DNA from: a virus
Lineage: Duplodnaviria; Heunggongvirae; Uroviricota; Caudoviricetes
Length of the DNA: 37,224 nt
Reading direction: 5' to 3' (one strand)
IMG/VR virus record: IMGVR_UViG_2512047041_000009
Span: 1-37,224 of that record
Shown: positions 3,001-9,000 of the stretch, piece after piece
Layout: the number at the start of each line of letters is the position of its first letter
How positions within the stretch are numbered: the first letter of the stretch is position 1
Position numbers: made by a program

Positions 3001-6000
3001 TGGGTACAAATCCGTCTCCGTCATCGTCTCAGTACCTCATCAATTGCCCGGTTCATCCGCGCAATCGCCACCCGGGCTGCCTGTTCACTGCGCACATCAA
3101 ACGCCGGGCGCACAAACGGGTGTGGTGGCATATTCACGGTACCCATTTCCACAAACCGCCAGTAGAAGGCATTGCGGGGATTATCCGCCTTCATGGTGTT
3201 ATCACTGTTGCCGGTGTCCGGATTAACACCACGGATATGCACACCGGATTCCATCCCGCCATCGCGGGAACGCCGGGAAAGAACCACCACATTGCGGCGC
3301 AGTTTTCCCCTGCGCACCGGTGCCCGTGACACCACTTCGTTCTTCAGTACATTCGCCCCCGCACGGGTTGCCTCACGCAACACCCGGTTGTTTTCCGCAC
3401 CACTCAGAAGCTGCAAATCGCGACTGATATCCTCAAGCCCCGAAAAATCCAGCAGGGTTTCGATCATTTTTCCCCTCCCAGCCGACAGAGAATTTCCAGA
3501 CGCCCGCCGGTCGCATCCGGCACCGGCCCCCCGACAACATTCAGAATTCGGTCACGCCACGGGCCGCTCAGCACATGCAGTCGTGACGCCGCCGTGATTT
3601 TCCGTCCTGACGGACCGCGCACCCAGATGCGGATTTCCGCCTGCGCCATTTCCGCACCGGACTGCATCCGCTCCCGGCTGCTCCTGCCCCGGATATCCGC
3701 ATGAATTTTCCCGCATGACACCCACTCTTCCGTCATTTCTCCGGCAGCATTACGGGTTAACACCGGGTTCAGAACACTTATCATCTGTGTCAGACGACCT
3801 GCAGATATTGCCATCCCCCCCCTCCTCATAACACCGTCGGACAACGCAAATCGTAAATCAGCACGGACACAGAAAACGGCAGTTCCCCCTGCACGAGGTC
3901 TTCCCGCTCAGCAAGATCCGGATTCCGGTACAACATCCCGGTCAGGCGCATGGCAGCCCCCTTCATCCGGGTTAATGCCTCGCCCGGGATCAGTTCACCG
4001 TCCTCACGGATTACCTTATCCCGGCTGCCCTGAATGTAGGCCAGCAGCACAGCTGTAGCCTGACGAACCTTGTCCATCAGCATGTCATCATCCGCGTCAT
4101 GGTCAACACGCAGATGAGCCTTGATTTCTTCCAGTGTCAGTAATGCTGTCACTTTCCACCTCCTGCATCCCGCCCTCGTTTTGCAGCCAGGGTCCAGCCT
4201 GATGAATGAGCTTCTCCGGGTTTATCACCGGTCATGCTGTTGCAGTGCCACAACGAGCCCCCCCACGTCACCGTATCGCCGGGGTGGTAGGTTTCGCCGG
4301 TTCTGAATACACCGCGATAGAGCATCACCGGCAGGGAAAATGTTTTTTCCGTACACTGGCCACTGCTCTGCCGGACCACCACAGTGAACGACCGTTCGCC
4401 GGTCATGCTGACGTCAATATCGGCCACCCCGTCAACCAGGCATTCCCATCCCCGCATCCCGTGCGTTTTTTCATACGCCCGCCAGAGTCCGCCCTGGTGT
4501 GTGGCATACGTGCCCCGGGGAAAGGATTTTTGCTCATCAATCGCCGGGAATATTTCCAGTGCCGTGGCATCACGCCCGTCCTGTGGAGCCGGCAGGGCAC
4601 TCACCGCATCCAGAACCGCCTTCTGCAGAACTTCCGGATCGTAGTCACGACCGTCGCGCGGAACGGGGATATGACTCACGGCATCCGTCACCATCTGCTC
4701 GAGCATCGGACGCACATCATCCGGTGTGATACTTTTTCCATCTGCCGGTACCGGAAGTTTTCCGACAGCGTCATTCACCGCCCTCAGCAGCACCTCCGGA
4801 TCATAATCACGACCATCGCGCGGAGCAGGGATATGACTCACTGCGTCCTTCACCATCTGCTCGATCATCGGGCGTACATCATCCGCAGTGACACTTTTAC
4901 CGTCCGCCGGTACCGGTATTTTCGCGACCGCATCATTCACCGCCTGCTGCAGCACCTCCGGATCATAATCACGACCATCGCGCGGAGCAGGGATATGACT
5001 CACTGCGTCCTTCACCATCTGCTCGATCATCGGGCGTACATCATCCGCAGTGACACTTTTACCGTCCGCCGGTACCGGTATTTTCGCGACCGCATCATTC
5101 ACCGCCTGCTGCAGCACCTCCGGATCATAATCACGACCATCGCGCGGTACCGGAATGGCCCCCACGGCGTCATTCATCATCGCCTGCAGAACAGGGCGCA
5201 CCTCATCCACCGTCACATGCTTCTGTAACAGAGCAGACAGGGAAGCCAGTTTCTCTTCAAACGCCCCCGACTGTGCGGCCATCTTCTCCTCAAATGTGCG
5301 CTGTAAATCCGCCAGCACCGTGGCGAATTCTTCACCCAGCGCACGGATAATGGACAGTTCACGCTCTGTCATTTTCGCAGTATCCCCCTGAACATCGCCT
5401 TCACCGCATCACGCTCTGTTTCGCTTATGGCCTTATTACCGTCAGATGCGCCGTCAGGCAGTTGTGATGAAACTGTTTTCCCGGTCGACGCGAACGGATC
5501 CTCACGGGCATCACGACGGGACAGCGCCTCCAGACTGTAGTTCTGCTGCTGAAGATACAGTGCATCACCGCCGGCCAGAGGCGGCAGGTTCTCCCGTTTA
5601 CGGGCCTCATTGGGCGTGAGAAGCGTATTTTTCACCGCATCCCCCAGCGTTTTCATGCGCCGCTCACTGTCCATTCTCAGCAGCGTGGTGACATCAAATT
5701 CTGTACTCTCGTTTTCCCCCGTTTCCAGCGCCTCATCCAGTAACAGTTCAATGGACTCAATCAGCGTCTGCAGGCACTGGGAATAATACTGCTGCTCCAG
5801 CGCCTCCACGTTGTCACTGGAAGGCGGTTGTCCCACGCCAATCTTGTAGGCCGGGACACGGAACACCGAACAGACAATTTCAGCAGTCATCTTCAGTTGT
5901 TCCACCGTCTGCGCATCCACCGGTGAAAACGTCGTGGGGTTGTATTTTGCCCCGTTGCTCAGAATGGCCGTTTTCCCCGCATTTTCGCCTGTATACCCGC

Positions 6001-9000
6001 TGTCCCAGTTGCTCTTCAGTTTTTTCGCATTTTCTTCCGTAATACTGCCGGGGATCTCAATCACCCCGGACGGCCTGCCGCCATTTCTGAAAAAAGACGT
6101 TGAATTTGCCTGAATATGATGCCCCTGCGTGGCCGCCAGCCCGGCAGCATACACCGGCGGCAGCCCCACAAGCGGATGAAAAAAACAGTTAAACCGGTCG
6201 TGGATCACTTCCCTGGCAGGCACCGTCACCGCCTCAGTGATCCCGCAGTTCCGGTCCGGTGTAATGCGATAGAACACCTCGCCGTCATCCGCCACCAGAG
6301 GTTCAACCCGGCTCCAGTCCAGAATACGCAGTTCTTTGATCTGCCCCCGGGAGTTACGGATTTTCAGCACCACCGTATTGCCGTGACGCAGTTTGGCGTT
6401 CAGCCACAGTTCAAAAAACTGGATACGATTCTGCTGTGCATTGGGACGACGACAGAGACGGGCAATATCCCCCTGCCGTTTTTCACGGCGGATCCCCTGT
6501 GTATCGGTCTGCATCAGGCGCAGCCGCATTTTGGCGATATCCTGGGATATCAGCGAAATGCAAGAAAACACCGCGTGAAAGGACAAAACGGTTTCCGGAT
6601 CGGCTTTCACACCCTGCTGCCAGGCACCGGCAAAAGGCTCAGCCACCGCCTGAAACAGGCTGGTCCAGCCCACCTCTTTTACATCACGTCCTGATTTCTG
6701 GTTTTTTCGGGTTCGCCACAAAAGGTTCCACATTCGCCATGCTCCGCATCACGTTTCTTTTTCTGACCTGCCGGACGTCGCACTGTGATGTACTCCGCCT
6801 TCCCCAGGCGAACCAGCACCTCCGCACACGGCTGTGCCACATCACGGATATCCCCGGCCCGGGCATCATGCGTGCCCTGCAGATACTGGATTTTTGCCAT
6901 CAGTTACTGCGGGAAGCTCGCGCCTCCCGCCCTCCTCATCAGACTCAGCCGCCGGACGCAGTTCCGTAGTTCACACCGGTGATCACCGCCACTGCCGCGG
7001 TACGGCGACGACGCCAGTTGATCCAGCGCTCCGCACGGATGGCCACGCTGCCGGTCTGGAACATGGAGACCAGCTCCACCGGTGACGGTGTGCTGCTGTC
7101 GCTGGTCGGTTCAGACTGCATCTCCAGTGACGCTTCACGGGACATATCCACCGCCACACCGCCGTCATCAGCCAGATAAATATCCGGCGCATTCACCAGC
7201 ACCAGCTGGTCACCCACGTACTGGGAGACAATCACCGGCAGGCCCTGGAAGGTGCCGCCAAGCAGGGTCATGTCCGGATATTCCTTCTGACCCAGCGCAT
7301 TTTTACGCATGGACAGCGCCAGGGCATTTGTGCTGGACATCAGCCAGACCGCACCGGTGGGCTGCAGGTTTGCTGCCACAAACTGACCAAACGCGGCTTC
7401 CGCATCCGTATCCGGGTTACCGGTTGATGCCGTGCCCTTCACATCATGGGTGATGGACGCAGGGGAAACATCGGCCACCGCCGCTTTTTTCGGGTCCACA
7501 AAGTCTGTGTCCAGACGCGCCACCACCGCTTCCGCCAGTGCATTACGGACCAGCGCATCGGCGGCAGGACTGGAAAAACGGATCAGCTCTTCCGTCAGTA
7601 CCGCAATAGCCGCCACCTTCGCATGACTGAAGGTGATGGATTCAAAATCAAACTTCGTCAGGGGTCTGGCCTTACCCTGCCCCACCCAGCCGGCAGCACC
7701 ACCGGACACCTGGGCATGCACGCGAATATTGAACGGCACCTGACGAAGTGCCGGGATCCCGCCATGACCAAATCGCCCGATAATGGTCTGCGGACGCAGA
7801 TAATCAATAAAGTCCTGCGCATATTCCTGATATTCAGACAGGCTGCCTGCCCACTGTGGGTCCGTGGTGGTCCCTGCCCCCACCGCCGACTTCAGGACAT
7901 GATGCAGACGGCTGTCATCCGGATACTGACGACGGGCCACTTCCAGGGCTTCAGAGCGGACACCTTTAGCCGCGGCCAGTGATTTGGCAAAGCGGGCGAA
8001 ACCAATCCCCTTCTCCAGTTTCTGCTCAACACGGATCACCGGCGCTGAAGCCACCGTGGCCACATTCCCGTTACCGGCCTGTTTCACCGGCTGTGCCGTG
8101 GCGGCCTTACTGGTTTCCAGTTCACGCAGACGCTTCAGGTGCGCATCCACCTGACGGATTTCCGCTGCGGTGTTGTCGTAGTGCTCTTCCTCTTCCACAT
8201 CCAGTGTGCGGCCTTCCTCTGCGGCTTTGGTCATGACCTCCTCAAGGGAGGCTGCCAGCGCCGCACGCTTGTTTTCAAAACTTTTAATCTGTTCGCCAAT
8301 ATTCATTATGGTCTTTTCCTTATGAAAAACGGTTGTTGACTGTGCCGCAGCGCCGGCAGAAGATGCGATTTTCACCACCGGTTTCCGGTTGCCGGACGCG
8401 GCAGAAAACGGGCGGTCGTAAGATTTAATGGTCCGGATGGTGCATTCCGCATTCGCGGGCACGGTGACGGCAGACACCTCCATCAGTTCCCAGCGCAGAA
8501 AATGCAGTCCGCCTCCGTCCAGAAAGGTGTATTCATGGGGACGGAAGCCCACGGACAGCCCCCTGACCAGCCCGGTCTTAATGGCCGCCCAGACCTCATC
8601 CAGCCGGGCAGCCAGTTGCGACGGCATATCCGGTACGGGCTTCACCAGTGTTGCCGTGATTTCCAGCCCTTCGCTGACCCGGCGCACCGTACACTGGCCT
8701 ACAGGGCGGGAATGGTCATGCTGCCAGAGAAACGGGATCGTACTGCCAAACTCCGCCCCCTCCGGCTCCAGGATGTCACCATCCCGATCCGGAGAAGGCG
8801 TTGACGCAATCCCGGTGATCACCCGTTCATCCTCACTGAAGGATTTCACCGTCAGCAGGGAACAGGCCCGTTTAAGAGTCACATCAGCCTCCTGAAAATA
8901 AAAAAACCGCCGGAGCGGTTCGTGATGGTTACAGTGTGAACAGGGTTATATGAAAAAAACCGCATATTCTTTCTTTTTCGGTTCCGGGTTAAGGGACATC

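Follow-up and report, generated by a model that had tools for sequence, protein, structure and literature searches.

This study concerns the head-gene region of IMGVR_UViG_2512047041_000009, an IMG/VR record of a tailed phage. The whole 37,224-nucleotide (nt) stretch of this record is referred to as the window, and all coordinates are those of the window. An original prediction, made from the sequence alone, had pointed to an unusual arrangement in which a fused prohead protease and capsid gene precedes the portal gene, and had suggested that this may reflect a rearrangement. We find that the gene order, i.e. the small (TerS) and large (TerL) terminase subunits, the protease-capsid fusion, a small gene, the portal, a fiber-like gene, and then genes resembling gp6, gp7, and gp10 of phage HK97, is a conserved lineage trait spanning three classes of Proteobacteria. 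The module in the window is very probably the standard head-assembly module of a lineage of HK97-like phages that is widespread and has already been catalogued; here it resides in a lambdoid Escherichia coli prophage. Within the fusion gene, a conserved internal initiation signal suggests that a second, shorter product is also made.

Gene order across relatives

Head genes occupy the first 11 kb of the window and are all on the minus strand. In reading order, TerS and TerL are followed by an open reading frame (ORF) of 645 amino acids (aa), a 211-bp stretch (6944–6734), the portal gene, and a 407-aa ORF encoding what we call protein X, after which come genes for a gp6-like adaptor, a head-closure protein, and a gp10-like protein (Table 1). 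Pfam matches place TerL and the portal on either side of the 645-aa ORF, which is therefore located between terminase and portal as had been predicted, and the gap of 211 bp with its 73-codon ORF was likewise found.

The closest modules are those of long-tailed Shiga toxin (Stx) or lambdoid phages of E. coli, i.e. BP-4795 (NC_004813), 2851 (NC_049943), 1717, YYZ-2008, and Lys8385Vzw (MT225100). The region 5369–8882 aligns over its full length, at 95–96% nucleotide identity, with more than 90 phage records, most of which are from long-tailed Stx-converting phages, and the order is the same in BP-4795, 2851, and Lys8385Vzw at this level of identity. In modules of the BP-4795/2851 type, the fusion is 97–98% identical in protein sequence to that of the window, and gene order, small ORF, and spacing are identical. 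With near-identical proteins (a phrog_617 fusion and a phrog_2271 portal) in the same order, the module in the window belongs to this type. It differs in that terL is frameshifted in the window; in addition, the number of repeats in protein X varies, and 2851 has another allele (G6) of a G5 tract near the portal stop codon. Lys8385Vzw has been induced, and its particles display long non-contractile tails as assessed by transmission electron microscopy (PMC7946995). The arrangement itself is already known, having been annotated as "major head protein/prohead protease" in Stx phages of the BP-4795 type for about twenty years. We looked for an explicit discussion of the capsid-before-portal order in the literature and found none.

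The same trait extends well beyond these phages. Among 5,426 complete E. coli genomes, 1,282 contain a match to window positions 3000–11500, and the median copy number is three per genome. More than 2,000 database homologues of ~645 aa that contain both a Peptidase_S78 (PF04586) and a Phage_capsid (PF05065) domain are distributed across Enterobacterales, and a single cluster has 9,916 member sequences. To these we added 29 loci fetched from GTDB species representatives in Alpha-, Beta-, and Gammaproteobacteria, 27 of which have flanking DNA; in all 27, TerL, fusion, and portal lie on one strand in this order. The divergent loci among them, at 32–54% protein identity, come from Hydrocarboniphaga, Marinobacter, Snodgrassella, and Chelativorans, and from metagenome-assembled genomes (MAG) of Hyphomicrobiales and Caulobacteraceae. 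Similarly, the order is identical in every one of the 76 IMG/VR loci that reach the portal (the remaining 4 of the 80 sampled end ahead of it).

Two cultured non-enteric phages have this layout as well. In Burkholderia phage vB_FUB47a (39% identity), TerS and TerL are followed by a protease gene, a separate capsid gene, a 58-aa ORF, and then the portal. Pseudomonas phage vB_PaS_IME307 (Detrevirus; portal 38% identical) displays the full layout with a 667-aa fusion. Both therefore share with the window the succession of terminase, protease/capsid, small gene(s), and portal, although at only 38–41% protein identity, and IME307 resembles it further in a fiber-like gene after the portal, an internal GGAGGG-ATG signal in the fusion, and hairpins on both sides of the capsid gene. 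In contrast, Moraxella phage Mcat26, whose portal is 30% identical, has the canonical order. Portals with at least 38% identity thus accompany the swapped order, whereas the 30% identical Moraxella portal accompanies the canonical one.

All informative relatives share the order seen in the window, whereas Mcat26 and HK97 have the canonical one (TerL, portal, protease, capsid); any swap of the HK97 order must therefore be ancient, and it defines a large clade. That the order instead reflects a recent rearrangement, or an assembly artifact, specific to this element would agree with its departure from HK97 and from the Moraxella phage, and with the presence of at least one inactivating lesion (in terL) in the prophage. 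Nevertheless, we consider this to have virtually no chance of being correct, because the same order and spacing recur in the phage records, the ~1,280 E. coli genomes, the 27 species-level loci, and the two cultured non-enteric phages described above, and conservation extends to the small gene and the intergenic hairpins. The comparison with functional relatives, which the original prediction had itself proposed as a check, refutes the rearrangement that it suggested: Lys8385Vzw, BP-4795, and 2851, which form virions or have entries as complete phage genomes, show the same order, as do all distant relatives with flanking DNA. Read support across 6734–6944, raised as a concern at the same time, is not an issue since hundreds of independent assemblies contain this stretch in conserved form. 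The gene order by itself would not be expected to have an effect on head assembly.

The small gene, the bracketing hairpins, and the portal-X junction

The 73-codon ORF between capsid and portal, previously considered doubtful, is a real conserved gene. A syntenic ORF of 51–68 aa is found at this position in nearly every relative, with a stop codon that usually abuts or overlaps the portal ATG, and it was annotated as ORF57 in BP-4795. The encoded proteins have in common an N-terminal motif (M-KIRYLQ-THD--GD-K-V-D-CA-VLVLLGKAEY), which is still recognizable in Snodgrassella and IME307, and behind it a basic tail. The gene is under purifying selection, with a median ratio of nonsynonymous to synonymous substitution rates (dN/dS) of 0.18 over the first 38 codons. 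An 18-codon C-terminal extension of the ORF, overlapping the portal start, occurs in the E. coli lineage only. Scans of the small protein against Pfam and NCBIfam gave no match, and its one family assignment is to phrog_829 (Table 1). The capsid-portal interval of the Marinobacter locus (L031, 10021–10359) and of IME307 (L119, 5697–5921) encodes an extra small predicted membrane protein, and the Marinobacter homologue of the small gene also has an E3-binding (peripheral subunit-binding) domain (Pfam, E = 2.9e-14).

The capsid gene lies between two hairpins. The first, upstream of the gene and identified by a terminator scan in the terL/capsid interval, consists of GAACCGCTCCGGCGGTT followed by a T run. 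The position of hairpin and T run is kept in Enterobacterales, Hydrocarboniphaga, Marinobacter, and IME307, although the stem sequences differ. The downstream hairpin (−22.5 kcal/mol, z = −1.8) lies within the 44 nt (6944–6901) ahead of the small ORF. At this position, a GCGGGG...CCCCGC hairpin, often with a T run after it, is present in 14 Enterobacterales loci, and other GC hairpins are present in Marinobacter, a MAG locus (L022), and IME307. A search of 4000–11600 against Rfam at a relaxed threshold gave no matches. Putative terminator hairpins are annotated on either side of the protease-capsid pair in the HK97 record as well, and the capsid cassette seems to travel with its flanking hairpins. 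The hairpins probably set the level or stability of the capsid mRNA relative to the low-copy portal and neighboring low-copy genes. In addition, a conserved GGAGG precedes the downstream hairpin, ~30 nt ahead of the small-ORF ATG, and together with the hairpin it could form a split ribosome-binding site (RBS) brought close by folding.

The portal is 27% identical to HK97 gp3 (E = 2e-24) and matches phrog_2271 (E = 0). Its stop codon overlaps the ATG of protein X (ATGA). When the G5 tract at 5384–5388 is replaced by G6, as seen in phage 2851, portal and X are fused into an 859-aa protein. IMG/VR loci of the E. coli type include 38 with G5 and 20 (about a third) with G6, and both alleles occur on two identical 400-nt flank haplotypes; the difference represents either recurrent slippage or a homopolymer sequencing error. 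Separate ORFs for portal and X, with the ATGA overlap, are the conserved state in all genera, the two-ORF form being the ancestral one in all genera other than that of E. coli. Because of this conserved state, the label "frameshifted" given to the portal by the Prokaryotic Genome Annotation Pipeline (PGAP) is probably a mis-call. We also considered a programmed frameshift joining portal to X, as suggested by the G5 tract and an A-run before the stop codon. It was rejected as a conserved mechanism, because other genera do not have the G run and the frame of X varies by genus, with the ATGA overlap in most and ATGAATGA in the loci of Pantoea sp. BAV 3049 and Erwinia typographi (L013 and L015).

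Protein X contains 3.3 copies of a 162-nt (54-aa) repeat at 4615–5147, and repeat number varies among relatives (245, 407, and 461 aa). The N terminus is conserved, as is a CBM5/12-like C-terminal domain out to alphaproteobacterial loci; weak CBM_5_12 matches at the C terminus recur in eight orthologues. One orthologue (L026) has collagen repeats instead (E = 2.5e-19), and in a Pantoea locus (L017) X is fused to the portal (1243 aa). X is usually annotated as a second "portal protein" but is not portal-like, and a PDB sequence search with it returned nothing meaningful. Owing to the 54-aa repeats, the CBM5/12-like C terminus, and the collagen repeats in one orthologue, X looks like a head or neck fiber.

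The fused protease-capsid protein and its internal start

The 645-aa ORF, which opens with a GTG, combines a serine protease of the HK97 gp4 type, a helical segment resembling a delta domain or scaffold, and a capsid domain with the HK97 fold, so that the fusion proposed originally was borne out by Pfam, NCBIfam, and AlphaFold2. In the 645-aa protein, Pfam detects Peptidase_S78 at aa 48–152 (E = 2.7e-8) and Phage_capsid at aa 386–635 (E = 1.3e-14). NCBIfam detects TIGR01543 at aa 48–154 (E = 4e-12) and TIGR01554 (major_cap_HK97) at aa 204–584 (E = 8e-22), the latter from model position 3 at aa 204, and there is a match to phrog_617, "major head protein" (E = 4e-260). As assessed by BLASTP, the protease region is 29% identical to HK97 gp4 (E = 1e-7), with H55 and S110 aligned to gp4 H65 and S114, which we take to be the catalytic residues of gp4. 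H55 and S110 (codons at 8720–8718 and 8555–8553), the putative catalytic residues of the fusion, are invariant in 29 homologues. AlphaFold2 models a protease domain (aa 4–140) and a helical hairpin (aa 195–222 and 229–261), both with a predicted local distance difference test score (pLDDT) of ~75. These are the only usable parts of a model whose input was a shallow alignment of 29 sequences, all at least 73% identical. A sequence search of the PDB yielded a weak, marginal match of the fusion to a phage major capsid protein, 9d9w (E = 0.005).

Like HK97, the module has an S78/U35 prohead serine protease with matching His and Ser, a capsid protein of the HK97 family with an N-terminal delta domain, i.e. 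a delta-type scaffold built into the capsid protein, an HK97-family portal homologue, and genes similar to gp6, gp7, and gp10 in the same order. Unlike the module in the window, HK97 has its portal ahead of protease and capsid, these two are separate genes, and neither a small gene nor a fiber-like gene is found beside the portal. Furthermore, the capsid domains are so diverged that neither BLASTP nor shallow hhalign gave a significant alignment of the fusion capsid with HK97 gp5. For this reason, the cleavage site and the residues involved in cross-linking (K169, N356, and E363 in HK97) could not be mapped. The boundary between delta and shell is presumably near K331, a guess made from resemblance to what we take to be the K103/S104 cleavage site of HK97 gp5.

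Single genes with this composition have been described elsewhere. MD8-like Pseudomonas phages have tripartite protease-scaffold-capsid genes, and MD8 gp5 was modeled on ClpP (PMC8508860). NCBIfam includes a "prohead protease/major capsid protein fusion protein" model (NF045541, scaf_prot_MCP2), a precedent, against which the 645-aa protein scores 53.5 bits over aa 49–264 only, versus a curated cut-off of 525 bits; NF045541 is a different family with a similar architecture. Effantin and colleagues are said to have reported, in 2010, a tripartite protease-scaffold-capsid gene in Salmonella phage Gifsy-2. The layout of Gifsy-2 is lambda-like, with the portal before the tripartite gene. Gifsy-2 and MD8 thus resemble the window in being temperate lambdoid phages with a single ORF in which protease, scaffold, and capsid follow one another. 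However, their proteases are ClpP-like or lambda C-like and their layout is lambda-like, whereas the fusion in the window has an S78 protease and is followed by the portal. Because S78 is its only protease family match, the fusion does not belong to the Gifsy-2/MD8 type, which is defined by an S49/S14 protease at the N terminus.

A degenerate or erroneous merger of two genes, non-functional as a fusion, is a highly improbable explanation for the 645-aa ORF. Although some related phages have the two genes unfused and the internal start signal described next is intact, the homologues of ~645 aa with both domains number more than 2,000, the reading frame is kept across 39–99% identity, the linker is open in frame in every lineage, and the fusion is found in phages that make virions.

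In unfused relatives, the protease stop codon is followed by a short spacer bearing a Shine-Dalgarno (SD) motif and then by the start of the capsid gene, with 13 nt between the two genes in vB_FUB47a. The capsid proteins of vB_FUB47a and of Snodgrassella prophages begin with MTIAEKIK and MTIEEQIN, respectively, which are homologous to M193-NIGEQIK in the 645-aa ORF. The internal ATG of codon 193 is, from this comparison, the predicted ancestral start of the capsid gene. At the aligned site, 24 of 25 diverse fused orthologues have an in-frame ATG, GTG, or TTG with a purine-rich SD-like motif 6–11 nt upstream, which is AAGGA in Enterobacterales and GGAGGG in Hydrocarboniphaga, Marinobacter, Caulobacteraceae, and IME307. 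The linker residues encoded at the motif vary (HKEK, KGN, KGK, QEG, REG, and TEG), whereas the nucleotide motif is kept, and GGAGGG in the deep lineages ranks in the top 0.5–1% within its own ORF. Of the six conserved start-codon columns among 634 aligned columns, codon 193 is the sole one with a consistent SD, with a mean SD energy of −6.1 kcal/mol versus −1.3 to −3.4 kcal/mol at the other five.

Because the RBS and ATG of the capsid gene have been kept in 24 of 25 orthologues, the ORF probably yields two nested products. The protease gene would have lost its stop codon and run in frame into the capsid gene, which retained its own RBS and its ATG at codon 193. A full-length protease-delta-capsid protein starting at GTG 8882 and a delta-capsid protein starting at ATG 8306 would co-assemble via the capsid domain, so that the protease is covalently carried into the procapsid. 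Once assembly is complete, the protease would excise both itself and the delta segment, and the mature shell protein would then have roughly 310 aa. Nested starts would provide covalent delivery of the protease without one protease per subunit. Nested in-frame head genes are known from lambda C/Nu3 (and P2 gpO), and nested initiation is experimentally established in lambda. The proposed likeness lies in a long protease-bearing product and a short product from an internal start, with a common C-terminal part by which both are directed to the procapsid. The difference is that in lambda this shared part is the scaffold only, with gpE separate, whereas here, from the sequence, it would be scaffold plus capsid.

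Alternatively, only the full-length polyprotein may be made, with protease and capsid at 1:1, which is the usual assumption for tripartite capsid genes; the SD and ATG inside the ORF would then be an unused relic of the fusion. This remains a plausible reading, to which we give a sizable chance, if clearly below even. We know of no report of nested initiation in tripartite genes of the Gifsy-2 or MD8 type, Met193 could be conserved for structural reasons, and the two SD motifs are unequal in strength: that of the full-length start is strong (AGGAGG, anti-SD duplex of −10.3 kcal/mol), so that the full-length protein need not be the minor species, and the internal one is moderate in Enterobacterales (AAGGA, approximately −5.6 kcal/mol, roughly the 10th percentile per ORF), in loci that are not independent. 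Production of the polyprotein only is less easily reconciled with a purine-rich motif that is conserved at the nucleotide level despite changing linker residues, that is strongest in the most divergent lineages, and that has no SD counterpart at the other five conserved Met columns.

Two nested products are part of a broader reading that we hold tentatively, at slightly under an even chance. In this reading, some capsid subunits would have a tethered protease, replacing the non-covalent C-terminal targeting peptide of HK97 gp4, the hairpin-bracketed cassette before the portal would tune capsid-to-portal stoichiometry, and G5/G6 would be a slippage-prone portal-X switch. Besides the unequal SD motifs, several points weigh against our overall explanation of the module and its products. 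The internal signal could be a relic, and use of the internal start, product ratio, and cleavage site are all inferred. For the downstream hairpin, conservation is one of position and sequence only, because covariation is minimal (1/6 pairs within Enterobacterales), and the E. coli hairpin is without a T run. The capsid part of the AlphaFold2 model is unreliable (mean pLDDT of 43 for the model, below 50 for the shell domain) and leaves the shell fold unconfirmed. Finally, the terL frameshift means that the module may not be in use in this prophage.

Terminase lesion, prophage context, and significance

The features of the head module are listed in Table 1.

Table 1. Features of the head module, in reading order (window coordinates)
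Feature	Coordinates	Strand	Evidence
Terminase small subunit gene, TerS	10605..11165	minus	Pfam Terminase_2, E 1.2e-8; terS annotation in a near-identical genome
Terminase large subunit gene, TerL, disrupted	8946..10608	minus	Pfam TerL_ATPase and TerL_nuclease on separate ORFs
Terminator-like hairpin in the terL/capsid-gene interval	8894..8921	minus	Terminator scan
RBS AGGAGG (8893-8888) and GTG start (8882-8880) of the full-length 645-aa product	8880..8893	minus	Direct sequence reading
Prohead protease/delta-like scaffold/major capsid protein fusion ORF, 645 aa	6945..8882	minus	Pfam, NCBIfam, and PHROG matches
S78 (HK97 gp4-type) protease domain, aa ~4-156	8415..8873	minus	PF04586, TIGR01543, HK97 gp4 alignment, AlphaFold2
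Putative internal in-frame initiation signal: AAGGA (8321-8317) and ATG codon 193 (8306-8304)	8304..8321	minus	Conservation; start use inferred
Delta-like (scaffolding) segment, aa 193 to ~331, end approximate	7890..8306	minus	TIGR01554, AlphaFold2 helices
HK97-fold capsid shell domain, aa ~332-645	6948..7889	minus	Pfam Phage_capsid, TIGR01554
GC-rich hairpin just 3' of the capsid gene, with GAGGAGGG before it	6909..6930	minus	Fold energy
Conserved small gene, 73 aa here	6679..6900	minus	phrog_829, E 7e-39
HK97-family portal gene, 454 aa	5369..6733	minus	Pfam Phage_portal, E 1.9e-81; TIGR01537, E 2e-106
G5 tract, 12 nt upstream of the portal stop codon (5371-5369)	5384..5388	minus	
Fiber-like protein X, 407 aa	4149..5372	minus	Repeats, CBM5/12-like C terminus
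Head-tail joining genes in HK97 order: gp6-like adaptor (3826-4152), head closure (3464-3844), gp10-like (3021-3467)	3021..4152	minus	PF05135, PF05521, PF04883

In terL, a 1-nt insertion (an extra T) at ~9633, which gives CCGC-TT-GGG versus CCGC-T-GGG in relatives, splits the gene into two overlapping ORFs encoding the ATPase (10608–9619) and nuclease (9752–8946) domains. The gene is intact (1662 nt) in AR_0017 and BP-4795, the alignment reference. The same lesion is present in E. coli AF57, which is 99.9% identical and in which PGAP labels the gene "frameshifted". As read from its sequence, the prophage is probably unable to package DNA. In terS, at ~10642, the window is one GTG unit shorter than AF57 in a GTGGTGGTGG run, an in-frame 3-nt difference in repeat length.

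The window as a whole is a lambdoid prophage, integrated beside mlrA. Prophage cargo is found at ~16100–21500, between the Q-like antiterminator quuD and the lysis genes, and comprises an ompC porin, tRNA-Ile, tRNA-Arg, a truncated DNA methyltransferase, a TolA-like gene, and a SASA-family esterase. The phage-borne ompC is on the opposite strand, in a patch of low G+C content (~39–41% at 20–22 kb).

As a finding about this window, the arrangement is of little importance, since roughly one in four complete E. coli genomes has it. For annotation, the probable mis-call of the portal inflates pseudogene counts in E. coli prophages. More generally, the textbook order of terminase, portal, protease, and capsid has a large and stable exception over three proteobacterial classes, and the conserved internal start offers a simple hypothesis for how protease-capsid fusions may escape a 1:1 protease load.

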